NCBI GenBank assembly: GCA_963776275.1
Contig: CAVZMI010000029.1
Span: 23,123-87,122, forward strand
Source of the DNA: Ignavibacteriota bacterium
GTDB lineage: Bacteria; Bacteroidota; Ignavibacteria; UBA10030; CAVZMI01
Reading direction: 5' to 3'
DNA: 64,000 nt
Numbering within the stretch: the first letter of the stretch is position 1; the number at the start of each line of letters is the position of its first letter. The notes below the pieces were generated by a model. It was not told where the DNA came from, ran no database searches, and was given only the letters and a program-made list of their open reading frames with translations. This document shows positions 463 through 27,350 of this stretch, piece by piece. A program made the translations under genes and the position numbers.

Positions 463-1304
463 CCGCTTGCCACTTCCAAAATGAGTTCAGGCAGGCCCGT
501 CGCTGTGCTATCGGCCACAACCTGTAAAATTAAAGCACTATCTGAATAAACAACTGGCATACCGGTTTTTAACATATCATGAATGTCACCATCATTTGCC
601 GCACGTACTCTACCGGAAGTCCAAAGAGGTCGAAGTATCAATACATTGAAAGTCCCGGCAGTCATTGCGGTGCTGCCATTGGTTACAATAACCGATTCTA
701 TTTTCTGTATACCAACATCTCCGGATGCTAATGCTATTTGGAACATCTTGCCCAATGTAAGTGCATTTGCAGCTTGAGCAGCCGAAATGATAGATGTATG
801 TCCGGTTGCTCCTTCGGAATTCGTGTATGTAACCTGAACTTGCCAGTTCGTACCTGTTACAAAAGCAGTTACGACTTCAATCCATATTTCATTTCCCTTC
901 CCAAAAATAGTTCCACTTCCGGGATAATCAGGGCAACGTTGAGAGATTACTGGTTGGGCAGAAAGGTTTGTTGTTCCGCCTGCATAAGAATATGCTCCTG
1001 CTTTGAAAAGCATATCATAAATTGATAGACGACTGGCAACCGAGTTACCAAACTCTACTTTTGATAGATACCCAACACCGGATGTAAAGAGAATAATTGG
1101 ACATCCTGCTGTTGCATCTGTTGGGACCACTCCATTGGCGGTAGATGTTCCTGCGAGAATACCGGCTCCTGGATTACCCGCCAAGTCAAAAACACTGAAC
1201 GGGATAACTGCCACACTTGTTCTTGAGGCGGTTTTATTTATCGTTATCCGTTGTTTTACAGATGCAATGTACTGATCGAGTGATGTAATCATACTGTACT
1301 CCAT
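459..1304 (-). CDS. hypothetical virion/tail-module protein
   Basis: 281-aa ORF, rich in G/T/S/A. 16-nt overlap with the upstream ORF. Family not recognised. Confidence 0.5.
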   Translation of the reverse strand: MEYSMITSLDQYIASVKQRITINKTASRTSVAVIPFSVFDLAGNPGAGILAGTSTANGVVPTDATAGCPIILFTSGVGYLSKVEFGNSVASRLSIYDMLFKAGAYSYAGGTTNLSAQPVISQRCPDYPGSGTIFGKGNEIWIEVVTAFVTGTNWQVQVTYTNSEGATGHTSIISAAQAANALTLGKMFQIALASGDVGIQKIESVIVTNGSTAMTAGTFNVLILRPLWTSGRVRAANDGDIHDMLKTGMPVVYSDSALILQVVADSTATGLPELILEVASG

Positions 1305-1975
1305 AGACCAGCTTGGTCTTTAGTGAATACTTTTATAATTTTCTGCCCATCACCACTGGAGGCGGCTTCCAGATCCGCACCGTCGATTGTGCAATTGATA
1401 TTCGTTGTAGCCGGATAATTCCCCGCCGCGCCATTCATGTTGGTGGAACCATTTGCCGTTCCAATTAGGATCCCTGCACTGTGGATGCTATCGATTGCAG
1501 GTACGACTTTAACTTTGTATTCATCAAAAATAGAATCGCATTGGAAGCTAAACGAACAAGTCCGTTTCCCTGCTATTTTGGAGATTGTTGTTACATCCGG
1601 CCCTACGCTAATTGTTGAAACCGGTACCGTCATATCAAGAGTAATGGAATCGGTTGCCTGAGAAGATTCATTATACACATTATCACGGATCTTCAGGTAC
1701 AATGTTTTCGAACCATCACCTGCAGAAAGCTTAACTTGCTTCGTTGCGTTAAACGAGATCCAGATCGATGAGCCTTCTGTCGACTGTATATTGGTATCAT
1801 AAGACGGATCAACATTTCCCCAGATCTTCATCTGGTACCCGGTTGTATCTCCATCACTGGTGCTTATCGCACACGACACTAATTGTACACTGGTATAAGC
1901 CGCTCCACCTTCAATAATTATTGAAGGCGATGCTGGCCCCGATGTATCTAAGGTTAAATTAAAATAACTGGACAT
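1289..1975 (-). CDS. hypothetical virion-module protein (beta-rich)
   Basis: 228-aa S/T/G-rich ORF in the virion block. Family not recognised. Confidence 0.5.
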   Translation of the reverse strand: MSSYFNLTLDTSGPASPSIIIEGGAAYTSVQLVSCAISTSDGDTTGYQMKIWGNVDPSYDTNIQSTEGSSIWISFNATKQVKLSAGDGSKTLYLKIRDNVYNESSQATDSITLDMTVPVSTISVGPDVTTISKIAGKRTCSFSFQCDSIFDEYKVKVVPAIDSIHSAGILIGTANGSTNMNGAAGNYPATTNINCTIDGADLEAASSGDGQKIIKVFTKDQAGLWSTV

Positions 1976-1998
1976 TGACTACTCCTTCGTATCTTCCC

Positions 1999-2355
1999 TT
2001 ACTTTGTTATCCGCTTCATTGCTGAACTGTAAATCTGCTCCCACTCACCGAGCGTCTTAATCTGACTCTGATCTCCATGCTCTTGGAGGAAGATTTCCAA
2101 CCGACTCTGGATCCCACGCGAATAGTTTTTTGACCGGCAGAAAGTCACAACATTGACCTTCGCCACTTCTTCATCTTTTGTCTTTTTCGTTATTTTCGCC
2201 GGCACCTTTCTGGATTTATTCGTTGTATCCACTTTGCTCGTATCGACATTAACTGATGATCCTGATACTCCCGGCACTAAAGGATCAGGGACTATTTGAT
2301 TCGATGTTTTTTCATCAATTGCCGATTGATCGGTATTCGTTCCTTCTCTTTCCAT
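1999..2355 (-). CDS. hypothetical protein
   Basis: 118-aa ORF that directly abuts the upstream ORF (stop 2357, start 2355). N-terminal half is K/T-rich. Confidence 0.4.
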   Translation of the reverse strand: MEREGTNTDQSAIDEKTSNQIVPDPLVPGVSGSSVNVDTSKVDTTNKSRKVPAKITKKTKDEEVAKVNVVTFCRSKNYSRGIQSRLEIFLQEHGDQSQIKTLGEWEQIYSSAMKRITK

Positions 2356-2356
2356 T

Positions 2357-3322
2357 TCATCCTCCTGCTAAATAAGTTGTGTCGACATACAACCACTCCC
2401 TTTTACCCTGTCCTCCAACTTGTAGTTGTTGCTCTATCACAAGTGCCACTGTCATCAAACCTTGTACACCTGCAGCACCCTCATACTTTCCTTCGCCATC
2501 GCCACTCATAATAAATCTTGCATCCCAGACCATACCGTTACCAGCTCTCATGATGTACCGTCTCATGATGGGTCTCATCACGCGCATAATATCAGTGAAC
2601 TTATCCCGCCGTGCCGGATTCCCAATACAGACCCATTCAACTTGGAAGGCATCTATATCGCTCTCACCTTTTACTATTTGATCATTATACTCTGCAATGA
2701 AACTTGAAAAATATCGTTCCGCTATCTGTCCAGGTAATCGGCTGACAACGACAAAAAAATCTTCATCTTTAACCGCAGAATAATTTTTCATAACTCGAAG
2801 ATTCTTAGGGATCTCCGGTTTTTGACCTTGCAGTGAACGAACGGCATCGATGGCTTTCTCCACTGCCCTGACAATCAGCGATTTTCCATCCACCGCATAT
2901 ATCTTGATCTGCGCTTCCGGGATGATACTAAGATCGATTGTGGATGAGGGTTTGTTCCACTTTTTATCTCTTATCATAGCTCGATAGAAATATTCTTTTC
3001 CGTTTTCTACTGAATAATCGACAATCCATGTATGCGCATTATCGAGATCTCTGAAAACAAATATTCCCAGATCTGCTAATTGCCCATCACTCAATTCATC
3101 ATCAAAATATTCCTCGATGTTTTCATTCGAAGGGTTTGCTCCCTGTTTCTTGAAAATATAGACCTGCCATACTTCAGGAAGATTTGTTGGCAATGTCCAA
3201 TTCAGTTGGATTTCTCCACCATGTGGATCAGAGTTCGCTGTAAATGATTCCAGCGGATCTGTATCATCTCTTGTAACCACGAGATAAAATATGAAGTGAA
3301 AAATTTTAGGGCGGCTCCTCAA
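2357..3322 (-). CDS. hypothetical virion-module protein
   Basis: 321-aa ORF. TTG at 3322 is the only start candidate I found near its 5' end. Preceded by the conserved 23-nt motif at 3355-3377. Confidence 0.5.
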   Translation of the reverse strand: MRSRPKIFHFIFYLVVTRDDTDPLESFTANSDPHGGEIQLNWTLPTNLPEVWQVYIFKKQGANPSNENIEEYFDDELSDGQLADLGIFVFRDLDNAHTWIVDYSVENGKEYFYRAMIRDKKWNKPSSTIDLSIIPEAQIKIYAVDGKSLIVRAVEKAIDAVRSLQGQKPEIPKNLRVMKNYSAVKDEDFFVVVSRLPGQIAERYFSSFIAEYNDQIVKGESDIDAFQVEWVCIGNPARRDKFTDIMRVMRPIMRRYIMRAGNGMVWDARFIMSGDGEGKYEGAAGVQGLMTVALVIEQQLQVGGQGKREWLYVDTTYLAGG

Positions 3323-3354
3323 CTGGAGCCATGAGAGAAGTTATTCTCAAAATA

Positions 3355-3377
3355 GGTAATTATTACCGTGATAATGG
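3355..3377 (-). promoter_or_regulatory. conserved palindromic motif, copy B (GGTAATTATTACCGTGATAATGG on the plus strand)
   Basis: Matches 14907-14929 at 22 of 23 positions. Contains the perfect palindrome GGTAAT-T-ATTACC. Lies about 35 nt upstream of a minus-strand virion ORF. Confidence 0.45.
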
Positions 3378-3456
3378 GAATTTAAACGAAAAATTTTCTT
3401 GACATTAATGTATAATATTATGAGATTCACGCATTATACTACTAATGGAGCCTACC

Positions 3457-3798
3457 ATGAAACCACGAATCACGTCTGTATTAATTGCATTTCTCTCGCT
3501 ATTTTTTCTTATAGCTCAATTAGATGCCGGTCAATGCAAAGCCATAACAAAGAAGGGAACCCAATGTAAACGAGAAGCGGTTTCCGGTTCTGACTATTGC
3601 TGGCAACATGGGGGCTCAAAAAAGAACAATTCATCAGTTTCCTCAAAATCCACCGATCAGTCTCCTGCGACTAAACAATCTAAAAAAGAGACAACCATCG
3701 GTACTACGGCAACCGGCAAATCCTTATATCAAGGACCGCGTGGAGGTGTATATCATTATAGTAAAAGTGGAAAAAAGGTATATCATAAAAGAAGGTAG
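3457..3798 (+). CDS. small secreted Cys/His-motif protein with a basic C-terminal GPRGG..GKKVY motif
   Basis: GGAG sits 7 nt upstream of ATG 3457, so the track start at 3445 lies upstream of the SD. N-terminus MKPRITSVLIAFLSLFFLIAQLDA looks like a signal peptide. Contains CKAITKKGTQCKREAVSGSDYCWQHG and GPRGGVYHYSKSGKKVY. Confidence 0.55.
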   Translation: MKPRITSVLIAFLSLFFLIAQLDAGQCKAITKKGTQCKREAVSGSDYCWQHGGSKKNNSSVSSKSTDQSPATKQSKKETTIGTTATGKSLYQGPRGGVYHYSKSGKKVYHKRR

Positions 3799-3806
3799 GC
3801 TAATTT

Positions 3807-4031
3807 ATGAAACTATCTAAAGATATTCGTGATTTACTACTCTGTTTGTTAATTGCGATTTCTGTAATATTCATATTTCAAACTTGCAGTAAGGATAGTA
3901 ATCCAACCTCATCCGGGGATTGTCCAAACGGAAGAAGTGGAGCGGTTTGCAACGATGGGACAACAAGTTCGGCGACGGGGAGTGGTGCTTGCTCAAAACA
4001 TGGAGGTGTTAATCACTGGCTATGTAAATAA
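3807..4031 (+). CDS. small secreted or lipoprotein-like DUF3761-type protein
   Basis: Hydrophobic N-terminus ending FIFQTC. C-terminal CNDGTTSSATGSGACSKHGGVNHWLC fits my recollection of the DUF3761 pattern CxDGxxSxSxxxxGxCSxHGGVxxW. Confidence 0.55.
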   Translation: MKLSKDIRDLLLCLLIAISVIFIFQTCSKDSNPTSSGDCPNGRSGAVCNDGTTSSATGSGACSKHGGVNHWLCK

Positions 4032-4061
4032 ATATAAAATCCTCTCCATCCTTTCATCTTT

Positions 4062-4940
4062 TTATTCCGCAGCAAGTCCGGCTTTCTGGAAGGCGTCTTT
4101 GACGGCTTTTGCCAGCATCCCATAGAATTCTGTTTTCACTGAATTAATCGCCTTTTCAGCAATATGCGATGCCTGGATCCCGGGATGTATCCACGCTTGG
4201 GGATCGGAGTTCTCGGATATTGTCCTGAATGATGAATACCGAGATCCGGAACCCGGACCAGCCTTGAATCTTACAATATTCTCAAAAGGTGATGTTTTCC
4301 ATGTGTACCGTACTGATCCTGTTGGCTCCCCGCCGCGAGGATATAGAGTCTGGCTCCCAGGTTTCCCCGCTCCCGATCGGGCCAGATCTCCTGTGACCGG
4401 AAAGACTTTCGATCGTCTGCCCAGATCTCCCATCCCCTTCAGCCGGCCGCCCCAGTCATATGAGCGCTGATCGCCCCGGGCCGTGTTTCTTATTATTGTG
4501 GTAATCCTACTTTCTCTCAAACCCCGGGCGCCCTCATACACTCCGGCTTCTTTGAGTTCGGATGTCGAATGTTCAAAAGGTATATGGATATATCTTTTTC
4601 CATCTTTCCCTACTTTTACCTTTGCACTCGTGCTCAACATTTTCTTGAGATCGAATGGTTGAACACCTTCCTCCAGATATTTCGCTGCAACATGTCTATT
4701 GACCACGAAAAATTGTAGTGGATCATGCTCGAATGGATATTCAATTCCTTCATCGATCTTTTGAATGTAGCCCCCGGGTCTTTTGAGGGCTGTCGCCGCT
4801 TCTTTGTGCCACGCCTGCACTAAAACCCCATAGCCGAAAGCCTCGACCTCACGCTCCAACTGCTCCTTCAATCCTTCAATTGCACTAACCAGATTTTCGA
4901 AAGGGGTGATATCGATAAAATATGAGAGTCGGATATCCAT
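4062..4940 (-). CDS. hypothetical virion-module protein
   Basis: 292-aa ORF convergent with the plus-strand pair of small genes. Family not recognised. Confidence 0.5.
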   Translation of the reverse strand: MDIRLSYFIDITPFENLVSAIEGLKEQLEREVEAFGYGVLVQAWHKEAATALKRPGGYIQKIDEGIEYPFEHDPLQFFVVNRHVAAKYLEEGVQPFDLKKMLSTSAKVKVGKDGKRYIHIPFEHSTSELKEAGVYEGARGLRESRITTIIRNTARGDQRSYDWGGRLKGMGDLGRRSKVFPVTGDLARSGAGKPGSQTLYPRGGEPTGSVRYTWKTSPFENIVRFKAGPGSGSRYSSFRTISENSDPQAWIHPGIQASHIAEKAINSVKTEFYGMLAKAVKDAFQKAGLAAE

Positions 4941-4964
4941 TATTAATATTTCTATGTGAATAAC

Positions 4965-4993
4965 TTGCTTTTTAAAATGAATATAGCTATACT
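4965..4993 (+). promoter_or_regulatory. sigma70-like promoter for the RHH-tnpB unit
   Basis: TTGCTT (4965-4970), 17-nt spacer, TATACT (4988-4993). The RHH ATG follows 6 nt later with no SD, so the transcript may be leaderless. Confidence 0.4.
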
Positions 4994-4999
4994 ATCTAT

Positions 5000-5131
5000 A
5001 TGAGAATCTTCCAAATTTATCTGACCAAACCTCAGATTGCGGCACTTAAAAAGCTCTCAGAGAAACTCGATCTAAGCATTGCCGAGCTCGTGCGTCGTGC
5101 CATTGATATGTTCTTGGAACAACAAAAATGA
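5000..5131 (+). CDS. ribbon-helix-helix (CopG/Arc-like) small protein coupled to tnpB
   Basis: 43-codon ORF absent from the track (under 60 aa): MRIFQIYLTKPQIAALKKLSEKLDLSIAELVRRAIDMFLEQQK. It has a beta-strand then two helices with the SxAELxRxAI signature. Its TGA overlaps the tnpB ATG (ATGA at 5128-5131). Confidence 0.6.
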   Translation: MRIFQIYLTKPQIAALKKLSEKLDLSIAELVRRAIDMFLEQQK

Positions 5132-6267
5132 GACGCACATTTCAATATCGAGTTCAACTTTCTAAAACTAATGAAGCGAATTGTCTCAGATGGTTAGAGC
5201 AATGCCGAATTCTCTACAACCTTGCTCTTGAACAACGTATTACCATCTATCGACAAAGCAGAAAATCCCTTTCTTGTTACGATCAAATAAAACAGTTGCC
5301 CGAACTCAAAAAAGAGTTTTCCGATTTCAAACAGGTTGATTCTCAATGTTTGCAGGATGTTCTTGAACGACTCGATAAAGCATTTAAAGGATTCTTTCGG
5401 CATGTCAAACAGGGTAAAGCTGGATTTCCACGCTTCAAGTCTTTTGGAAGATATGATTCCTTCACGTTGAAACAATGCAGTTGGAAACTCAATATTAGAA
5501 ATCTTACCATCAAAAATATCGGAGTTCTCAGCCTTCGTCTCTCCCGGCCGATCGAAGGCCGTATCAAGACCATTACAATTCGTCGAACTCCAACCGGCAA
5601 ATGGTTCGCCTGTTTCTCCTGTGATGAGGTTCCCGTTCGAAGCTTTCCGATAACCACGGCCGAAGTGGGTATCGATGTTGGTAGCAGAACATTTTGTACA
5701 GACTCCGATGGATTCAGTATTCCCAATCCAAAATATTTGAAACAGGGGCAAGCTGATCTCCGACGCAAGCAGCGTCGCCTTGCCAGGCGTGTCAGAGGCT
5801 CGCAACGCAGGAAGAAAGCACGGATGCTTGTAGCTAAGGCCCACGAGAAAGTAGCCAATCAGCGGAAAGATTTTCTTCATAAGTTGGCGAACGACTATAT
5901 AAGAAAATACAAAACGATCCATATTGAGGATCTCAATATTCAAGAAATGGTAAAAGGAATTAAAGGCAATACGAAATACATCGGCAAATCCGTGGCCGAT
6001 GCCGGATGGGGTGAATTCTTTCGAATGCTCTCGTACAAAGCGGAAGAAGCTGGTCGAGTCATTGTTAGAGTTCCCTCGAAGGATACGACAACCACCTGTT
6101 CCCGATGCGGCGTTGCTGTTCCAAAATCTCTTACCATTCGTATTCATCGATGTCCCTCTTGTAATCTTAAAATCGGCCGTGACCTAAATGCGGCTCTGAA
6201 TCTTTTAAGGGTCGGGCAGACCCTTCAGGCGTCAACGTGGGCTGATGTAAGGCCGTGCGTTGCCTGA
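5128..6267 (+). CDS. tnpB: TnpB (IS200/IS605-family OrfB, RNA-guided RuvC nuclease), copy 1
   Basis: 379 aa. N-terminus MRRTFQYRVQLSKT..CLRWLEQCRILYNLALEQR. RuvC motifs GIDVG, IHIEDL and RDLNAALN. Zinc finger CSRCG..CPSC. Paralog of 50143-51270. Confidence 0.9.
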   Translation: MRRTFQYRVQLSKTNEANCLRWLEQCRILYNLALEQRITIYRQSRKSLSCYDQIKQLPELKKEFSDFKQVDSQCLQDVLERLDKAFKGFFRHVKQGKAGFPRFKSFGRYDSFTLKQCSWKLNIRNLTIKNIGVLSLRLSRPIEGRIKTITIRRTPTGKWFACFSCDEVPVRSFPITTAEVGIDVGSRTFCTDSDGFSIPNPKYLKQGQADLRRKQRRLARRVRGSQRRKKARMLVAKAHEKVANQRKDFLHKLANDYIRKYKTIHIEDLNIQEMVKGIKGNTKYIGKSVADAGWGEFFRMLSYKAEEAGRVIVRVPSKDTTTTCSRCGVAVPKSLTIRIHRCPSCNLKIGRDLNAALNLLRVGQTLQASTWADVRPCVA

Positions 6268-19309: not shown

Positions 19310-20234
19310 CCAGTACCAATCTTACTTTATATCCATTCTGTTTCAATTCATGATATAATTTTTCAGCCTTCCCGGGATTCGATAGCGCTCCATCGATCAC
19401 CACATTCTGTTTATTTTTTATTGCTTCTGAAATGAGCTGCTTACTCATATGCGAACTTTCTTCATGGGCAATACTGGCCGCTTCATAATCATCGGCTGCA
19501 CGGAGAATTTGGTATTCTGGTATAAATTCCTTTGCCTCATCGGCATCGACCCATACATGAGATCGATTCGATTTCAAATCACCGTACAATGTTCTAAGGA
19601 TCGTACTCTTTCCGGTCCCGCCTCCACCTGCCAGAACGATCGCCTCACGCTTTCCTTCAGGCAAATCTTTCGGCACCTCTGCTGTTTGTATATTGAGAAA
19701 TGCTGAATGTAGTTCGCTTCGTTCTGGTTCCCATTGTCCATCATGGAAATATCGCCGCTCAGTGCTTATATCCTTAACCTGCGATAGAAACTCCTCATCG
19801 AGATCCTCCGGCGTAATAGTCTCAAAATCACGATAGATATATTGCTTTAATCGATCAACATATTTCCTATTCTCTTCTTCTTCCGGTACCGGAGCTTCGC
19901 TGGCCGACGTTCTGGATATCGCGAAATGTTTTCCAAGTCTCGATTTAACAGCCAACATATGATCGGCTATGTCTGTAACCTTTACCCTCAAACCACGATA
20001 TTTGACTTCATCACCAACCTTTATATCCTTCTGCCACTGTTCAAGCTTGTGGGATTGAAGCTCTTGTTTCTGAGACTGATGTTGGTCGGTCGGTTTTTGA
20101 TTTCCTTTCTTCTGTTTCTCATAATCGTCATCGTTCAACCAACGTCCCTGATCTGTGGAGAACCTGCGTCGATCAGTGGGGCCAAACATCCGGACCTCGC
20201 CTTCTGTCGGCTTTTCCACTGACTTCCTAAACAT
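19185..20234 (-). CDS. Zeta-toxin-like P-loop kinase with an N-terminal junction/SH3-like module
   Basis: 349 aa. P-loop LAGGGGTGKSTI followed by VDADEAKEFIPEY and a GYKVRLVLVDAD layout typical of Zeta-toxin/AAA_33 kinases. 8-nt overlap with the upstream 1261-aa ORF. Confidence 0.6.
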   Translation of the reverse strand: MFRKSVEKPTEGEVRMFGPTDRRRFSTDQGRWLNDDDYEKQKKGNQKPTDQHQSQKQELQSHKLEQWQKDIKVGDEVKYRGLRVKVTDIADHMLAVKSRLGKHFAISRTSASEAPVPEEEENRKYVDRLKQYIYRDFETITPEDLDEEFLSQVKDISTERRYFHDGQWEPERSELHSAFLNIQTAEVPKDLPEGKREAIVLAGGGGTGKSTILRTLYGDLKSNRSHVWVDADEAKEFIPEYQILRAADDYEAASIAHEESSHMSKQLISEAIKNKQNVVIDGALSNPGKAEKLYHELKQNGYKVRLVLVDADYDTALMRAHNRSERSKRAVDPAILRHANGKAAFRNGV

Positions 20235-23200
20235 AACGATCGCCTTTTTCCCGATCGCTCTTGAAAAACCGTATCAGTTGGCGTATGCTTTTTTTTAAGC
20301 CGCCCTTTTCATTCGCTAATTCAAAACCATACTGCCTTGCAATATTTTCCATTTTACGATATACATCAAACGCCCCGAATTGTTCTTTTGCCGATTCCTG
20401 CTCATCGGCTGTCAGCTGCTCCTCTCCGGACCGATAGGGCTTATTCTCAAGCAGAGTTCGTTCAGCGATTGCCACCACATCCTGATACTGTTCTGCCTTC
20501 TTCTGTTCTTCAGATTTGATTGATCCGAAAATATCATCCTGATTCTGATCAAGTGTTTTAAGCGCATCAGAGAATCGGCGTATTTTTAGTGCGAATTGGT
20601 TTATCGATTTATTCCGGTTTTCTTCATCAAACCGTGGATTCATTGCTTGATGATATGCTATCATGCCGACAACAGTTAACGGATCCCGGAAAAGGTTCTC
20701 TTCTTTCTTCTCTGTGGAAAGTAGATCTTCCTGCCTCATTCGATGGATGAGTGTGTCAGGATTCATCGCTTGAGGATCGTCATTTAAGAATTCCACGTTT
20801 CCGGCCCGGATATTCATCAATGATTTCGTCCCAGAACCGAGGTTGTCATAGGATTTTACCACACGGCCGAGGAAGGATTGAATATCCGCATATCCGGGGA
20901 CCCGGCCTTCCGCCACTGCTCGCTGATTGTCTGCCAGGACCGAAGCCAACTTTCGTACCAATCTATGTGTTTTGTCATCCCGACCAGCAATATCCTCAAT
21001 GAAGTCTTTCTTTAGTTGCGCCAGCATCGCGATATTGACAAGTCTTGCTTGTACCGATGGATGGCTCTCAACTGCTTCACGGGCTAATCCGGAATCCTTC
21101 AAAATCTCTTGATAGAGTTGTGGATTGTTTCTGACAAACGTTCCCACGTTATTTTCATCGATCGACCGGTTACCTATACCTTCAAGATTAATACGAAAAT
21201 CATATGGCGTGCGTTGTGCATTTTGGAATGCCCGGGCTTCCTCGACCTCGGTCTGCGGTAGAGCTGCACTCTTCTGACCAAATGCCGCAAGTCGACGTGC
21301 ATCTTCATACGTATGCATCGGCGTCAATATCCGAACCAGCATATCGTTTTCTGTTAGTTTTTCTGTCGGAGTACCAAGTTTCTTCGCCTTATCGAGTATC
21401 ATCCCGAAATACTTTTCACGCTGCACGCCTTGTGTACCTTTAATGCCGGCACTGCGGCCATTTCCTTGGATGATATAGACTTTCCCATCTCTGGAAAATG
21501 CCACTGGTGCACCGCGGGTAGCATCCGCATTGTCCGTTACCACGTCGTCGTTAATATCGGAAGCAATCTTTTGCATTTGAGTTACCGCGTGCACGTCACT
21601 CCTTTTTCTTGCCTGCAGTTCAACGGGATGCTCTGCGTTCTCTTGACCTTCGACATTATGAGATTCAACTACCGAATCCATAGGTACAAAAGCATATACC
21701 ACATGATAACTATTCCCACTGCTATCTCTAATCTTGAATGGCTCTTCGACCACAGCTTTTGCGTTCTCGGGAATTTCCGAGGTATCTCCCCATTCAAATT
21801 TACCTTTGGCCCCGCTTGTACGCGCTTCACCTATTTTTTCTCTGAGCTTTTCGCGTAAATAATCATTCCGGCGCTGACGGATGAAGCTCTCTGCTGTATC
21901 CATGTAATCGGATATCTGTCTGGCTGCTGGCTTTTCCTTCAGAACGCCGCTTTGCGATAGAGTATTGAAAGCATCGATCTCTCGCCCTCGCTGATCATCC
22001 GCTACTTTCATTCGCTCAGCCAAGGATTGTATGGTTGCTTTCCATTCCGGTCGACCATATGCTTCTGCGAGCTGTTCGTCAATCCCCTCTCCACTATTAT
22101 CTATGAAAGAATCGAAAACATCTTTATACATGCCAGCATCAATCGGCTTACGTCCTGTTTTTTCTTTTTCGATCCTGGCTTTCGCCGTATCGACGTCCAT
22201 ATTCCTGATCTGCTCTTCCCTTAGTTTTCCTGTAAGTCCGACGACCAACCTCTTCATTTTCTTTGAACCATCATCGAGCTTACTATCATCGACGTTACGG
22301 CGTGTATTCTTTTTTAGGATTATATTCGTTCTCCGGTTTCCATCTATTACACCGATTTCATGACCATGCTTATAAACCGTAATGCCAGTAGCAATTTTAC
22401 CGAGACGTATATCTGTATATCGGGCACCCACTGCCGGCTCCAATCTCTTCCATACTTCATCATTGATTATCCGGATGGTCCCGGGCTTCAAGAGATCTGC
22501 TTGAGTAATACCTTCTTCCATTCTGATGGCACCAAGTTCTTTCTCGCCCTTTTGTACCGTAGCATTTCCATCTTCATCCAGGATTAAGTTTCCCTGATAT
22601 TTATCGAGATCGTACTGATTGATTTTAACTTCATCATTTCCCTTCCTCAGGACAATATCATCGCCATCGATGTCAACCAACTCCTGTGTTTCGCCTTTGT
22701 ATATCAAATGAATAGGCCGGTCATTAGCCGAAACTGTATACGTCTTTTTCTCCGGAAGCCATGTTCGGTTTAAAGTATAATGAATCTTAAACCAACCTTC
22801 TTGTTCCCATTCAACATCCTTTTGAAAATTGAAATCGTCAAGCTGATTCCAGTCTTTGGAGAGATGCTCTTTGAATTCCTTATATTCCGGTGTTTCTATC
22901 TGTTCATTGTGTATCCGGGTCACTTCTTCCTGATATTTTTCCCCGACTGATTTTGGATGGGGTTCGAATTGCAATACTCTCTCCTGCTGCCGCTTTTTCT
23001 TTTCATCAAGAGCATTCTGTTGATAAATCTCCGTCATTTTTCCATGTTGTATATCTCCAGTTTCTTGTGAAATAGTTTTTTCCGATTGCTTCTTGGCTGC
23101 GACCTTACTTTCTGCGTCATGATTGTACTCGGTTGTCTTCAATGTACCTGTCGATCCATCTTCTTTTTTGAAAGCAACAATATCATCTGCATAATTTACA

Positions 23201-24012
23201 ACCTGCACCTTTTCACCCTTCCATGGTATTTCCTGTCCGACTCGAAATTCTCGAGCTGCAGGCTTTGGAGTTCCTTCGTTTTGAACTTTATCCGTCTTCT
23301 TTTGCTGACGGCGTTCAAGCTCTTTCTTTTCCTCGTCCGCGTTCATCCACCTCATCGCACCATCCGGAGTCCGCATGAGCTTACGAATATCATTCGGCCC
23401 AAATTGCTTCGTCGTGCCCTCGGTGGGTTGCGATTCCGGATTGAGGTTTAACTTAAATTTTCCAGCATTGAAACTGATACCGACCTTATTCGGTCTTTGG
23501 GTGATAGATCTCGGGGTATTGGTTTGAATACGCTTCCGAAGTTCTATAAAGAAATTACCTACTTCCTCGATGGCCCGGGTTTCCCGCTGATAATCAATTG
23601 CTGGCCGCAATAGACTCTTCCGGCATACCTTTCTCCCAGCACCGTTTTCAATTAAGGCCATTTGATCACCGCATTCGATCACCGTGCCCTCTGTTGTCTT
23701 CGCTCCCTTTTGTAACCAGCTTCCCGATATTTCCAGAATCTTTCCCTGTATATCACTCATGATAATACAATCATTCTCACTCTTGAAAAAGTAAACTTTT
23801 CCATGTTCGCGAGATGGAGCCGACCCCAGAAAATTATCTATAGTCTTATCCACAAGTAAATAAGGTTTCCCATTGATAACACCGACTTCATAACTCTTAA
23901 GTATCAATGGAATTGAATTCTCTATCGGCTCGATCAAGAGCTCAATCCCGCGTGATAGGGTATAACCTTGCACCGTCTCGGCAAAATATTTCTTTGTGTC
24001 ACTCTCCATCAT
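20227..24012 (-). CDS. 1261-aa polyvalent-type protein with a ParB-like (ddrB-ParB-type) nuclease domain
   Basis: The stretch HPVELQARKRSDVHAVTQMQKIASDI...ATRGAPVAFSRDGKVYIIQGNGRSAGIK fits the ELQPRDR...GNGR pattern of ParB/sulfiredoxin-fold domains found in polyvalent proteins. The rest is large and not recognised. Confidence 0.6.
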   Translation of the reverse strand: MMESDTKKYFAETVQGYTLSRGIELLIEPIENSIPLILKSYEVGVINGKPYLLVDKTIDNFLGSAPSREHGKVYFFKSENDCIIMSDIQGKILEISGSWLQKGAKTTEGTVIECGDQMALIENGAGRKVCRKSLLRPAIDYQRETRAIEEVGNFFIELRKRIQTNTPRSITQRPNKVGISFNAGKFKLNLNPESQPTEGTTKQFGPNDIRKLMRTPDGAMRWMNADEEKKELERRQQKKTDKVQNEGTPKPAAREFRVGQEIPWKGEKVQVVNYADDIVAFKKEDGSTGTLKTTEYNHDAESKVAAKKQSEKTISQETGDIQHGKMTEIYQQNALDEKKKRQQERVLQFEPHPKSVGEKYQEEVTRIHNEQIETPEYKEFKEHLSKDWNQLDDFNFQKDVEWEQEGWFKIHYTLNRTWLPEKKTYTVSANDRPIHLIYKGETQELVDIDGDDIVLRKGNDEVKINQYDLDKYQGNLILDEDGNATVQKGEKELGAIRMEEGITQADLLKPGTIRIINDEVWKRLEPAVGARYTDIRLGKIATGITVYKHGHEIGVIDGNRRTNIILKKNTRRNVDDSKLDDGSKKMKRLVVGLTGKLREEQIRNMDVDTAKARIEKEKTGRKPIDAGMYKDVFDSFIDNSGEGIDEQLAEAYGRPEWKATIQSLAERMKVADDQRGREIDAFNTLSQSGVLKEKPAARQISDYMDTAESFIRQRRNDYLREKLREKIGEARTSGAKGKFEWGDTSEIPENAKAVVEEPFKIRDSSGNSYHVVYAFVPMDSVVESHNVEGQENAEHPVELQARKRSDVHAVTQMQKIASDINDDVVTDNADATRGAPVAFSRDGKVYIIQGNGRSAGIKGTQGVQREKYFGMILDKAKKLGTPTEKLTENDMLVRILTPMHTYEDARRLAAFGQKSAALPQTEVEEARAFQNAQRTPYDFRINLEGIGNRSIDENNVGTFVRNNPQLYQEILKDSGLAREAVESHPSVQARLVNIAMLAQLKKDFIEDIAGRDDKTHRLVRKLASVLADNQRAVAEGRVPGYADIQSFLGRVVKSYDNLGSGTKSLMNIRAGNVEFLNDDPQAMNPDTLIHRMRQEDLLSTEKKEENLFRDPLTVVGMIAYHQAMNPRFDEENRNKSINQFALKIRRFSDALKTLDQNQDDIFGSIKSEEQKKAEQYQDVVAIAERTLLENKPYRSGEEQLTADEQESAKEQFGAFDVYRKMENIARQYGFELANEKGGLKKSIRQLIRFFKSDREKGDRYV

Positions 24013-24182: not shown

Positions 24183-24442
24183 CACCGCCTCATAAATCTC
24201 CTCAATTCTTCCTCTTGTCGTACCATTATTAACTGGAGGGAATCAACTTGTTCCGGTTTGATATCTACTTTACTTTCCAGCCCCTTCCCCGACAATATTC
24301 TATATTTTCCAGTAAGGCTGACAAACCTGTATACCACTTTTGGTTCTGCCGACAACTCCCGTAATTTATAACCGAAAACTACACCTATGGCGAATAAGAC
24401 AATCGCTGAGATTACGATCAGTAATCCCCGCTTTGTTGTCAT
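24182..24442 (-). CDS. small single-pass membrane protein
   Basis: Probable start is MTTKRGLLIVISAIVLFAIGVVFGY at 24442, which gives an ATGA overlap with the stop of the MuF C-terminal ORF. The track start at 24511 lies inside that ORF. Confidence 0.4.
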   Translation of the reverse strand: MTTKRGLLIVISAIVLFAIGVVFGYKLRELSAEPKVVYRFVSLTGKYRILSGKGLESKVDIKPEQVDSLQLIMVRQEEELRRFMRR

Positions 24443-24921
24443 AATTCTATACCGTGTTGTTTTAGCGCGGTGAGTTTTGTGATGATGTCGCTGTTGTACC
24501 ATTTCTCCCATGCTTTCTCGTCCATGGCCTTCATCCGGATGTTGCCGTTTTCAATATATTGATTCAGAGGATTCAGTCGAACATAACGACAACGGCAATT
24601 TTTCACTACTAATCCATCTACCAAATAAGAATGATCGTTGGCAACCTCTATGTTGTAAACAAGATTATTGTCTTCAAAACATTTGTTTTCTACTATCCTG
24701 AGAAGCTTATATTTACACTTTGGATTGAAATTGACCTTTTTCATTACGGAGTTTTTCCCCTTTCTCTGAAGCATGCTCATCATCATGGCATTCGCGGCAT
24801 AGTACTTCCAAATTGTCCATCTCATTATTATGTCGATCCCTATCTTTATGATGGACATGTAAACTAAATACTGAGCCACAACGTTCACATTCCTTTTTCT
24901 TTCCATAAATGCCAAAAGCAT
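24439..24921 (-). CDS. C-terminal Hint block of the intein plus the MuF C-extein (second reading frame of a split gene)
   Basis: YNIEVANDHSYLVDGLVVKN followed by CRCRYV is an intein C-terminal block followed by the MuF CRC motif. It lies in the +1 frame relative to 24713-26584. The track N-terminus upstream of about 24760 is probably not translated in this frame. Confidence 0.55.
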   Translation of the reverse strand: MLLAFMERKRNVNVVAQYLVYMSIIKIGIDIIMRWTIWKYYAANAMMMSMLQRKGKNSVMKKVNFNPKCKYKLLRIVENKCFEDNNLVYNIEVANDHSYLVDGLVVKNCRCRYVRLNPLNQYIENGNIRMKAMDEKAWEKWYNSDIITKLTALKQHGIEL

Positions 24922-25621
24922 ATTTCCGGTATGATTTACGTCCGTCTTTAAATCTCGGTGCCTGAATTTTCACCTTCCCATAATTAGGATTCAAAGAGCC
25001 TATTTTTGAATCTGATATTTTTTTAATCGAAGGATTAGAACCTTTATTTTTACCGCTATTCCACGAAGGCTTGCCTTTTAACCATTGACCCCAAGAACCA
25101 TCCTGCACCTTCTTTTTGATAGCGAGATGTGCTTTTTCAATTATTCGTTTTCTTTCTTCGGGATCTTTGTATCTCTCGTAGAGTGCTTCACTTTTATTTC
25201 TCCATTTCAAGCCGTAATTATTCATCCATCGTCTCACTGTGTCAGGACTCACGCCATATTGTTTTGACATTTGCAAAATTGACATGTGATGGATATTATG
25301 TTTCTCAGATAATTCTTCCGCGGTAGGTTTATATTTTGCTTCTAATTCAACAACCATATCGCCTGGAATAATTTCATCTATTTTCGCCCAATAAAATTTT
25401 TCATTCCGTTTTATTAATATTTCGTGTTTAGAGGTCGATTTTAATTCAATTCCATTATCCGTCGTGAGCCGATTAAACTTTCCAATATATTCACGCACAT
25501 TCTTTCCAATTACTTTTTGATGCTTTCCTCGATGCGTAAAAACTTCATCGCCCTCTTGGATATCTTTTATTTTCTTCCTCTCTCCATTTGATAGGCTAAT
25601 TATTGCATCTCCATAAAAACA
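24598..25621 (-). mobile_element. intein with an HNH homing-endonuclease domain, inserted in the MuF HPxCRC motif
   Basis: N-terminal Cys at 25619-25621 (IPLHPY/CFYGDAIISLSNG), TSKHEIL block B, HTH and NUMOD3-like repeats, HNH CERCG..HVHHKDRDRHNN..CRECHDDEH, and C-terminal ..LVVKN/C at 24598. The length is 1024 nt, which is 3n+1, so the intein is frame-broken. Confidence 0.7.
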
Positions 25622-26584
25622 ATATGGGTGAAGAGGTATGACAGGCATTGACAGTTCGTGATGTGCTCTTTGAACTAATCCCGGATTTCCGTTTTCATCG
25701 ATTACTTTTTTATACGGTGATGAACTCCGGCCAATATTGTCCTTCCCCGTCCACACGACGTTAGTCCATAGCCATGATCGCCGTTGATATTCCTTGCTCT
25801 CTGGATCAAAGTTGCCATAAGTCATATCCTCGGCAGGCTCTATCACTGGAAATATTTTGCCATCAATAAGCCGACTACATTGTGGACAGCAATTGATCAG
25901 AGACATTCCTATTACCCAATCACTGGGTGGTACCTGTGCCAGATATCCATTGTTGAAAGCAGCATTCGTTTCGGTGATCGCGACTCTCTTCCAATCCCTG
26001 TTCAGTTCGTGCTCATCATCAAAGAATTCTGTTTCCAATGCCCGTCGAAAATCCCGGACACTGCCACGATTCTTAAGATTATCATATAAGAGTTCTTGTA
26101 TCCTACTCACGGTCCGACCGGTAGCGTTTGTCAAATTCTTCGCACCGTTCGAAACGCTCCATTCCAAAGCTTTTGTCTCGCGGACTGTTAGTTTGTAATC
26201 TCTTGCTGCATCCCGAATTCGTGCTGGAAGTTTTTCTATATCGAGTATTTTTCGAGGCGGTACTGGCGGAAGAGTCTCACTCTTCTCAATCAATTTGCCG
26301 ATGATGAATCCCCTTACTAACCATGTCTCTATCTCCGGCATTTTCCCATAAAAATATTTCCGGATGAATGAATCGATATCCTGAAGATCTTGAAGTGTGG
26401 GTATCGCACCCTCCTTCAATCTTCCTGCCAGATATTTATTCAGCGATTCATAGAATTTCTCAATTTCGAAAGAAGAATGGAATTGCTTCTCAAGTATTCC
26501 TAATTCTTCAAGGTGTTGTATGCCTCCTGGCTGAGTTTGAAGCTTCTGGAATACATCTCTTGATATTTTAAGAGGTGCTGTCAT
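24713..26584 (-). CDS. MuF-like (SPP1 gp7 family) head morphogenesis protein N-extein plus intein N-terminal and HNH part
   Basis: 623 aa. MuF motif WKRVAITETNAAFNNGY. The extein ends at IPLHPY, followed by the intein. The ORF terminates at 24713, before the C-terminal Hint block. Confidence 0.7.
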   Translation of the reverse strand: MTAPLKISRDVFQKLQTQPGGIQHLEELGILEKQFHSSFEIEKFYESLNKYLAGRLKEGAIPTLQDLQDIDSFIRKYFYGKMPEIETWLVRGFIIGKLIEKSETLPPVPPRKILDIEKLPARIRDAARDYKLTVRETKALEWSVSNGAKNLTNATGRTVSRIQELLYDNLKNRGSVRDFRRALETEFFDDEHELNRDWKRVAITETNAAFNNGYLAQVPPSDWVIGMSLINCCPQCSRLIDGKIFPVIEPAEDMTYGNFDPESKEYQRRSWLWTNVVWTGKDNIGRSSSPYKKVIDENGNPGLVQRAHHELSMPVIPLHPYCFYGDAIISLSNGERKKIKDIQEGDEVFTHRGKHQKVIGKNVREYIGKFNRLTTDNGIELKSTSKHEILIKRNEKFYWAKIDEIIPGDMVVELEAKYKPTAEELSEKHNIHHMSILQMSKQYGVSPDTVRRWMNNYGLKWRNKSEALYERYKDPEERKRIIEKAHLAIKKKVQDGSWGQWLKGKPSWNSGKNKGSNPSIKKISDSKIGSLNPNYGKVKIQAPRFKDGRKSYRKYAFGIYGKKKECERCGSVFSLHVHHKDRDRHNNEMDNLEVLCRECHDDEHASEKGEKLRNEKGQFQSKV

Positions 26585-26934
26585 TCGACGGAACCATGAT
26601 TCTTGTCATTCCAATATTGCATCCATGCTTCAACCATCCGTTCCACCATTTCTTTTGGTAGGCCTGTTGAGTTTGTCACCCTATCGATCGCCTCGTCTTT
26701 GGTACCATTGATCGTCTGTGGTGCTATAGGTACATTGATACGGAAGGGTTGTCCAAAAACACAGCTGTTATAGACATTACCAGCTATGCCCCGCTGCCCG
26801 GATTTATGCATTTTGAGAATCTGCATTTCCTGCGAGAATATATCTTTCTTTTTCTGTCGATCCTGTGCGTGAATAGACTGCTCTGATTCGATGCCGAATA
26901 CGCTTTTGCCGAATGCTTCGATCTTCAATTTCAT
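26581..26934 (-). CDS. hypothetical protein
   Basis: 117-aa ORF with ATGA-type coupling on both sides. Confidence 0.45.
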   Translation of the reverse strand: MKLKIEAFGKSVFGIESEQSIHAQDRQKKKDIFSQEMQILKMHKSGQRGIAGNVYNSCVFGQPFRINVPIAPQTINGTKDEAIDRVTNSTGLPKEMVERMVEAWMQYWNDKNHGSVE

Positions 26935-27350
26935 AAACCTTCTCCTGTTATTTGTCCTTCAAAATTCTTCTTTATTTTTTGTGCTTCTATGAGTTGAATC
27001 CTCAAATATTTATTTACTTCTTCAAGATCGAGTTCTACTGCCAGCTGATTCTTCAGTTCCTGCAGGTATTGCCATCGCTCCGGGTGTTCTTTTCTGACCC
27101 ATACTTGGTACTCTATCTCCGTCATGCTTGATAAGTGTTTGTACTTATGACAACAGATGCACAAACATATTCCGTTCAGTAAGTTCCATCGTAGTCTCAG
27201 ATTCCCCCGGGTGACAATGTGATCTGCTTCAAAATCCTTTTCCTCTCCTTCTTGACCGCAGCGTTCACAAACGCACGGTGCGCGAATGATTCTCCGCCAT
27301 AGATCGTCGTTCGATTCATGAAGCTTATCACGATCGTACTCCGTCGTCAC
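26931..27350 (-). CDS. HNH endonuclease (NinG-like)
   Basis: 139 aa. CERCGQEG..FEADHIVTRGNLRLRWNLLNGICLCICCHKYKH. Confidence 0.65.
   Translation of the reverse strand: MTTEYDRDKLHESNDDLWRRIIRAPCVCERCGQEGEEKDFEADHIVTRGNLRLRWNLLNGICLCICCHKYKHLSSMTEIEYQVWVRKEHPERWQYLQELKNQLAVELDLEEVNKYLRIQLIEAQKIKKNFEGQITGEGL

Follow-up and report, generated by a model that had tools for sequence, protein, structure and literature searches.

Is an intein whose two Hint halves lie in different reading frames a damaged gene, or can it be an arrangement in its own right? The question is raised by a 64,000-nucleotide (nt) stretch of contig CAVZMI010000029.1 from an Ignavibacteriota bacterium (assembly GCA_963776275.1), hereafter the window, in which a gene for a MuF-like minor head protein is interrupted by an HNH-type intein. 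All coordinates are given on this stretch, and all intein and head-gene features lie on its minus strand. The intein spans 25621..24598, which at 1024 nt is 3n+1, and its C-terminal Hint piece is read in the +1 frame relative to the open reading frame (ORF1) that encodes the upstream part. An initial annotation had described the intein as broken by this frame change and had offered three causes, namely a 1-nt assembly error, a recent inactivation or a required +1 frameshift. Its statements about the sequence and its coordinates all hold (ORF1, the +1 frame, the 1024-nt span and the block motifs). Its list of causes was incomplete, however, as it did not consider the reading that fits best in our analysis: the element is probably a cis-encoded, naturally split HNH intein specified by two overlapping genes, ORF1 and ORF2, whose products would be joined by trans-splicing.

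Two overlapping frames at the intein junction

The window was compared with three related metagenomic loci available as DNA, L004 (JGI 3300036760), L005 (ENA ERZ27229597) and L007 (ENA ERZ27279942), and with P0005, a relative available as protein only. The window intein shares 44-51% identity with those of the three DNA relatives, and identities between the lineages range from 44 to 58%. A common layout was observed in which ORF1 encodes the N-extein, the N-terminal Hint half (Hint-N), a helix-turn-helix (HTH)/NUMOD region and the HNH domain, and stops 4-6 codons past a conserved KGQF. In the window it terminates 4 codons past ...RNEKGQF, at a TAA (24715-24713) that follows the protein tail ...CRECHDDEHASEKGEKLRNEKGQFQSKV. 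ORF2 in turn begins at an ATG 32-38 nt upstream of the ORF1 stop and encodes the C-terminal Hint piece (Hint-C) and the C-extein. The architecture and end point of ORF1 are the same in P0002/L004, P0154/L007 and P0005 (Table 1), and the junction CGnAATGnAAAAGGTCAATTTC is common to all four DNA loci. In the relatives, no stops or indels interrupt blocks F and G or the C-extein, which are conserved, and the gene caller of the sequence collection picked the conserved ATG for ORF2 in every case. With the two-ORF layout conserved in L004, L005, L007 and P0005, the description of the intein as broken is not supported.

A further contig of 21.6 kb (ENA ERZ1426817) carries, as judged from gene-call coordinates only, the same 102-aa ORF2 protein as L005. 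The Hint-containing gene upstream of it has, by the same kind of coordinates, a length of 587 aa and a stop 72 nt short of the ORF2 start. If this gap is real, the HNH tail would be truncated there with ORF2 intact, which would favor independent initiation of ORF2.

With respect to the junction itself, each of the two frames has homologs. Specifically, intein residues 92-298 of ORF1 align with residues 8-221/222 of P0007, a free-standing HTH-NUMOD-HNH protein (39% identity across 215 residues of the endonuclease region). P0007 terminates one residue past its GRF, and many other free-standing matches end within a few residues of the ORF1 end point. ORF1 thus appears to end at the natural C-terminus of an HNH endonuclease of the free-standing type. 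For ORF2, residues 2-88 (KKVNFNPK...) align at 44% identity with residues 428-514 of P0014, a contiguous mini-intein considered below. From these two alignments it follows that frame A is homologous through ...GGT CAA TTT and frame B from AAG GTC AAT TTC, which are the same nucleotides.

The overlap is also the most conserved 24-nt stretch of the 1-kb intein, with 20 of 24 positions invariant as compared with a mean of 41% (17 of 24 in the HNH core), and of its 6 conserved codons 5 have an invariant third position, versus 38 of 104 overall. The ORF2 ATG is kept in 4/4 DNA loci. Frame-B stops lie 26 nt upstream of it in L004 and 9 nt upstream in L005, and the conserved ATG is therefore the only start common to all loci. 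The frame-A residue over the G of this ATG varies (E, A or G), its codon always being G-first, and conserved off-frame ATGs number only 3 over the 921 aligned nt. As placed on a low-confidence AlphaFold2 (AF2) model, the break falls at the endonuclease-insertion loop, between the last HNH helix and the first strand of the C-terminal half.

We favor a naturally split intein because the layout recurs, the ATG is conserved, both frames are homologous over the same nucleotides and the overlap is the most conserved part of the element. In the mechanism that we envisage, one late mRNA would give rise to the ORF1 product and, by initiation at the internal ATG, to that of ORF2, in which the 49-aa Hint-C piece is followed by the 52-aa C-extein. 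The Hint halves would then associate and trans-splice to yield a 373-aa head protein, with release of a nicked intein-endonuclease complex (Hint-N with HNH, plus the Hint-C piece). The HNH part of this complex would be expected to cut intein-less alleles such as that of the sister phage L002, and so bring about homing.

The intein, its host gene and its insertion site

In terms of intein identity, ORF1 matched two Pfam profiles above their cut-offs, Hint (31.6 bits; cut-off 29.7) and HNH (PF01844, 23.7 bits; cut-off 21.4), and HTH and NUMOD3 matches fell under theirs (NUMOD3 E=0.013). PHROG HNH families matched the HNH core of ORF1 with values down to E=4.6e-13. The C-terminal Hint block gave 0 matches when searched alone against Pfam. 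A conceptual read-through of the window (P0173), built by reading the four-letter word TTTC as F, matched PF14890 (Intein_splicing) end to end (1-155/155) at 40 bits (cut-off 35.8), a score that dropped to 29.4 without the C-piece. The Hint blocks proposed in the initial annotation are thus recovered by profiles above cut-off, as Hint in ORF1 and as PF14890 on the read-through. Alignment with the Pho RadA mini-intein (PDB 2lqm) likewise extends through VYNIEVANDHSYLV-DGLVVKN/C and takes in block G (here and below a slash marks the splice junction or insertion point). The AF2 model of the read-through intein (predicted local distance difference test score, pLDDT, 62.8; predicted template-modeling score 0.34) was too poor for a fold search.

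Features of a class 1 intein were found on both sides of the break. After ...IPLHPY, ORF1 reads CFYGDAIISLSNGERKKIKDIQEGDEVFT and TSKHEIL, so that the Cys1 nucleophile (CFYGD...) and the block B TxxH (TSKHEIL) are both present; an HTH/NUMOD-like stretch follows, and after it a complete HNH motif. The +1 frame, listed as an ORF at 24439..24921, reads ...KYKLLRIVENKCFEDNNLVYNIEVANDHSYLVDGLVVKN/CRCRYV... and supplies blocks F and G, the terminal Asn and the +1 Cys. The penultimate residue is Lys rather than His, and this peculiarity, already pointed out in the initial annotation, is real and is kept across the relatives. The catalytic positions (Cys1, TxxH, the block F D-H, the terminal Asn and the +1 Cys) are all retained in the window, L004 and L005. 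The endonuclease, for its part, displays the beta-beta-alpha-metal motif, Cys4 zinc site and DNA-binding modules of an HNH homing endonuclease. As read from its sequence, the insert is an HNH-type, class-1-type intein at the conserved HPY/CRC of a MuF-like gene, for which splicing and cleavage are predicted.

Assignment of the host gene was less direct. The joined exteins matched phage 'minor head protein' genes (Thermus phages) by tblastn across the splice junction, to residue 327. The joined extein did not match PF04233, which was matched by 1/15 intein-less relatives (E=1.3e-4), and a PHROG 'head morphogenesis' match that covers the splice junction was weak (E=1.9e-4); scores sufficient for membership of the MuF/SPP1 gp7 profiles (PF04233, IPR006528) were not reached. 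The AF2 model of P0155, an intein-less relative (pLDDT 82.7), matched 'phage head morphogenesis domain' and 'minor capsid protein' entries in BFVD with probability 1.0 and TM scores of 0.4-0.5. No match was found in the PDB by fold search of this model or by searching PDB sequences with a profile of the intein-less relatives. A portal gene lies 1.8 kb upstream of the head gene. Based on fold and genomic context, and not on profile membership, we accept the host as a putative MuF-like minor head protein, in agreement with the initial annotation, for which the BFVD fold matches, the weak profile matches and the position downstream of the portal gene all speak.

The insertion point is proven by the existence of an empty-site allele, L002 (IMGVR_UViG_3300018018_000035), which encodes a 372-aa homolog with 84% identity that reads ...IPCHPY/CRCRWIRLKPLNQYIENGNIRM... 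across the site. This sister is also syntenic with the window: a 139-aa HNH gene and a 117-aa gene precede the head gene, and genes for a small membrane protein and a giant protein follow it. HPY/CRC is equally uninterrupted in P0155, an intein-less protein from an 86-kb contig with 88% identity. Relative to the L002 and P0155 proteins the insertion is exact; the DNA insert is nevertheless 3n+1. The empty site of L002, together with the Pfam Hint and HNH matches, also bears out the initial placement of an HNH-type intein in the HPxCRC motif. Since the closest exteins (88% and 84%) lack the intein, recent mobility is indicated, and we take the comparison to point to an intein that has recently moved.

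The same position has received other inteins. P0014 carries a contiguous mini-intein of the same lineage at the same insertion point (...VVKN/CRC), with shared Hint-N and Hint-C sequences in a single ORF without HNH, and it is a contiguous sister of the split form. Distant head-protein homologs hold an unrelated contiguous mini-intein (P0166/L009, ...ITVHN/CRC) and a contiguous LAGLIDADG-type intein (P0167/L008, ...FSGN/CRC), each at HPx/CRC. Because these other inteins occupy the same position, the HPx/CRC site of this head-protein family is an intein hot spot.

Over the ~170 nt that directly precede the insertion site (25622-25790 versus L002 3794-3960), DNA identity to L002 drops to 72-73%, as compared with a typical value of ~83%, and just downstream of the site it is 85-92%. 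This dip may be a one-sided co-conversion tract from an intein donor, although the case is not convincing.

Other searches returned little. The intein region had no blastn match among phage records, and no copy of the element was present in 40 relatives of the host genome; among 400 genomes of the phylum there were weak partial matches only, none of the split type. A scan of genome contigs with a profile of the N-half plus HNH recovered nothing but free-standing HNH genes, most of them from Patescibacteria bins. IMG/VR scans yielded only the empty-site sister L002 and two distant Hint-N matches, and a metagenome scan yielded one contig, which starts inside the C-piece and is uninformative on the junction.

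Table 1. Features of the interrupted head gene in the window, followed by the ORF1 ends and ORF2 starts of its relatives.
Feature	Position	Strand	Evidence or sequence
ORF1, 623 aa: N-extein, N-terminal Hint half, DNA-binding region, HNH endonuclease, own stop	24713..26584	minus	ORF list and Pfam
N-extein of MuF-like minor head protein, residues 1-321, ending ...IPLHPY	25622..26584	minus	84-88% identity to intein-less P0156/L002 and P0155
N-terminal Hint half: block A Cys1 CFYGDAII..., block B TSKHEIL	25343..25621	minus	Pfam Hint; invariant C1, T63 and H66 in four lineages
HTH and NUMOD3-like DNA-binding region of endonuclease	24971..25291	minus	Sub-cut-off Pfam matches; alignment with free-standing HNH endonuclease P0007
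HNH nuclease core, CERCG...HVHHKDRDRHNN...NLEVLCRECHDDEH	24770..24889	minus	PF01844 and PHROG HNH families; Cys4, His and Asn invariant in four lineages
Conserved junction CGTAATGAAAAAGGTCAATTTC: frame A RNEKGQF, frame B MKKVNF; contains ORF2 ATG (24744-24742)	24727..24748	minus	2 positions differ in L004, L005 and L007
Overlap of ORF1 end and ORF2 start, 32 nt	24713..24744	minus	
ORF2, 101 aa: C-terminal Hint piece and C-extein	24439..24744	minus	Called by gene caller of sequence collection (P0003)
C-terminal Hint piece, 49 aa, MKKVNFNPKCKYKLLRIVENKCFEDNNLVYNIEVANDHSYLVDGLVVKN; blocks F and G, penultimate Lys, terminal Asn	24598..24744	minus	Homologous to mini-intein P0014 from residue 2
C-extein, 52 aa, CRCRYVRLNPLNQYIENGNIRMKAMDEKAWEKWYNSDIITKLTALKQHGIEL	24442..24597	minus	Collinear with C-terminus of intein-less L002 and P0155 proteins
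L004, ORF1 tail; overlap 38 nt			...HEKRNAKGQFQPITAG, stop (final part RNAKGQFQPITAG, stop)
L004, ORF2	ATG at 1069		MQKVNFNP... to ...IVKN/CRC; reads MQKVNFNPSQQVNLIPVVKNELSNDCDQVYNIEVTADHSYVANGFIVKN/CRCRWV...
L005, ORF1 tail; overlap 32 nt			...RMRNEKGQFQPKL, stop; ending ...RNEKGQFQPKL, stop
L005, ORF2	ATG at 119		MKKVNFNP...; reads MKKVNFNPNCKYDLEKVV...IVVKN/CRCSW
L007, ORF1 tail; overlap 32 nt			...ERNGKGQFLPQR, stop; ending ...RNGKGQFLPQR, stop
L007, ORF2	ATG at 3460		MEKVNFSP...; reads MEKVNFSPRGRYKLLKVTEN...LIVKT/CRCRW
P0005, 618 aa, protein only, tail; same ORF1 end			...EKNEKGQFLPVVRV, stop (final part KNEKGQFLPVVRV, stop)

The contig that holds the locus (C29) is 93,354 bp long with 43% GC, and is phage-like without a terminal repeat. 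The ORF2 stop overlaps the start of the next gene (ATGA at 24442-24439), and the same overlap is present in the intein-less sister L002. The phage in the window has several further endonuclease genes, for example that of a 139-aa free-standing HNH endonuclease (26931-27350, minus strand; PHROG HNH, E=3e-8) two genes upstream of the head gene, which L002 also has (2235..2654). Downstream of the head gene, a giant protein of 1261 aa is encoded at 20227-24012 (minus strand), with a counterpart in L004 at 1801-6105; its relatives exceed 2000 aa and carry ddrB-ParB, RadC or ART-PolyVal domains. This protein looks like a polyvalent protein, a kind often linked to MuF.

Split genes, frameshift or decay

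Several observations sit uneasily with two separately initiated genes and weigh against a naturally split intein. Before the ORF2 ATG, L004 has no Shine-Dalgarno sequence and the window has a poor or misplaced one, its GGGG ending 12 nt upstream; use of such sequences by phage and host is only moderate. Charge complementarity between the Hint halves, as known from the DnaE or gp41-1 split inteins, is absent. The terminal Asn of an intein is needed for succinimide formation, and in L007 the C-terminal Hint piece (3460-3615) ends ...LIVKT/CRC, with Thr in place of this residue. At least one member may therefore not complete splicing, the Thr being either an inactive variant or a sequencing variant. 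Known members are also few, at four DNA loci and one further protein, and the conservation of both frames is compatible with a frameshift that gives two products.

Such a frameshift would be a conserved, programmed +1 event in AAA_AGG or UUU_C, with most ribosomes finishing ORF1 and some making a contiguous precursor that splices in cis. The frames are indeed offset by +1 and the 22-nt junction is almost invariant. Moreover, +1 re-pairing is feasible for tRNA-Lys (AAA to AAG) or tRNA-Phe (UUU to UUC), and contiguous HNH inteins of similar spacing in other genes (P0017, P0049, P0063 and L094) make a fused product structurally plausible. Nonetheless, we consider this explanation unlikely. A slippery site combined with a slow A-site codon and/or a stimulatory element, by which programmed +1 frameshifting is recognized, was not found at the junction: the candidate slip sites are not followed by a stop or rare codon, a Shine-Dalgarno sequence at a prfB-like distance is missing, the A-runs are just 4-5 long, and conserved RNA structure is lacking around the junction (consensus -1.3 kcal/mol, no covariation). 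Frameshifting would also leave the conserved ATG that heads frame B unexplained, and the early ORF1 stop in ERZ1426817, if its gene-call coordinates are correct, would preclude fusion there. With no recognizable signal, the required frameshift suggested in the initial annotation is not supported, and it is quite unlikely that a splicing-competent precursor is made only via a conserved +1 frameshift at the invariant AAAAGGUCAAUUUC. Were this the case, frameshifting efficiency would set the ratio of a dead-end head-protein-endonuclease fusion to mature head protein, and the element would be, to our knowledge, the first intein with splicing dependent on recoding.

Alternatively, the gene could be split and splicing lost, with the Hint halves merely holding two MuF pieces together or the 52-aa C-piece acting alone. 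The Thr of L007 would suit such a state, for which the fragmented phage protein Aeh1 NrdA, assembled without splicing, is a precedent (cited in PMC2677866 and PMC3045599). Binding alone, however, gives no reason to keep the catalytic positions, all of which are kept in the window, L004 and L005, and we regard this alternative as very unlikely. Recent inactivation or decay, in which the frame break truncates MuF and leaves a pseudogene in a defective phage, is highly improbable: in four to five lineages that have diverged by ~50% at the protein level the same break recurs with both frames intact, residues of the HNH, of blocks F and G and of the C-extein are kept, and the downstream ATGA coupling is retained. 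This is so even though homing endonuclease inteins do decay once fixed and the contig comes from a metagenome-style bin (3.7 Mb in 38 contigs, 96% complete, 5.3% contamination). The chance of a one-base assembly or sequencing error, to which the short A and G runs at 24735-24766 might have given rise, is close to negligible. Identical frame structure is found in independent assemblies from other samples (JGI 3300036760, ENA ERZ27229597 and ERZ27279942), and run lengths differ among these (GAAAAAGG, GCAAAAGG and GGAAAAGG) yet the frame structure is the same. We reject an error or a random indel because the same offset, the same ATG and intact frames recur in three independent assemblies at 44-51% identity. 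Neither of these two causes advanced in the initial annotation is thus borne out, coding being intact on both sides of the break across divergent relatives.

Relation to known inteins

The closest parallels to a naturally split HNH intein of this layout are the 'fractured genes' described by Dassa, London, Stoddard, Schueler-Furman and Pietrokovski in 2009 from phage-like metagenomic DNA, in which an endonuclease gene lies between split-intein halves (PMC2677866). In 15 such loci the 3' end of the endonuclease gene overlaps the C-intein ORF by 6-69 bp, an overlap described as a hallmark of these genes, and the invading element was proposed to supply the initiator Met of the downstream half (PMC2677866). 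The window element shares with them a phage/metagenomic context, N-half and C-half ORFs that are adjacent on one strand and separate in the window, L004, L005 and L007, a break at the endonuclease-insertion loop, an overlap of the endonuclease 3' coding end with the C-intein ORF (here 32-38 nt), and a downstream initiator Met inside the endonuclease coding region. It differs in its HNH, which forms an in-frame fusion with Hint-N and lacks a conserved start. The sole in-frame Met near the HNH start (GDMVVE in the window) is absent from P0002, P0005 and P0154, and the free-standing endonuclease gene with its own start that lies between the halves of a fractured gene is lacking. In addition, the enzyme is an HNH nuclease with HTH/NUMOD modules rather than GIY-YIG or Vsr-like, and the host is a structural MuF-like head gene rather than a DNA-metabolism gene. 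In evolutionary terms, the element looks like a half-resolved fractured gene, in which the endonuclease has become fused in frame to the N-half with its own stop and the embedded downstream start kept. Step IIIa of the Dassa model, in which a contiguous intein is restored once the flanks of the endonuclease gene are lost, was drawn as a single undivided step with no half-way form reported (PMC2677866); by analogy, the window element would correspond to its half-completed state.

Contiguous HNH inteins (P0017, P0049, P0063 and L094; bioRxiv 10.1101/2025.01.02.630785) have the same order of Hint-N, DNA-binding modules, HNH and Hint-C, and the endonucleases of these four belong to a related family (29-30% identity). 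Their HNH runs into Hint-C in one frame, whereas here the HNH retains a stop and Hint-C is read in the +1 frame from an ATG of its own. A 2025 preprint also describes inteins in actinobacteriophage minor capsid proteins (IPR006528, MuF/SPP1 gp7-type) with antisense endonuclease ORFs, as well as HNH inteins elsewhere that are in frame and a single split intein in a different gene (bioRxiv 10.1101/2025.01.02.630785). Since this preprint reports both, MuF-type genes were already known to carry inteins, and HNH inteins were known as well. The actinophage inteins resemble ours in host protein type and in that only non-canonical endonuclease arrangements occur there as well (bioRxiv 10.1101/2025.01.02.630785). 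Unlike ours, they are described as contiguous, with antisense LAGLIDADG or Vsr-like ORFs. No description of an intein with a fused N-half and an overlapping C-half was found in the literature searched.

A separate contiguous intein was encountered in L095 (G242:C1:234659-237823), where an ORF at 1204..3096 (minus strand) encodes a 630-aa phage-like protein that reads ...DIC/FTAWQYKITT... to ...SYIVNGVVVHN/CDEL. The endonuclease domain inserted in it, in frame, is of the DUF559/Vsr-like kind (PF04480, 48.6 bits; cut-off 20.6); in PMC2677866 and 10.1101/2025.01.02.630785, Vsr-like intein endonucleases are reported only as free-standing or antisense ORFs.

Taken together, what looked like an error or a pseudogene is a conserved gene layout, and annotators should not 'repair' it. 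The element would be a naturally occurring intermediate that links fractured genes, whose endonuclease is free-standing, to classical bifunctional HNH inteins. With the contiguous mini-intein P0014 and the empty alleles L002 and P0155 at the same site, it forms a small evolutionary series that is testable at the bench. If trans-splicing does take place, the element would be a new natural split intein with Cys1, a +1 Cys, a penultimate Lys and a 49-aa C-piece, and it would place a split intein in a virion structural protein, an unusual host class.

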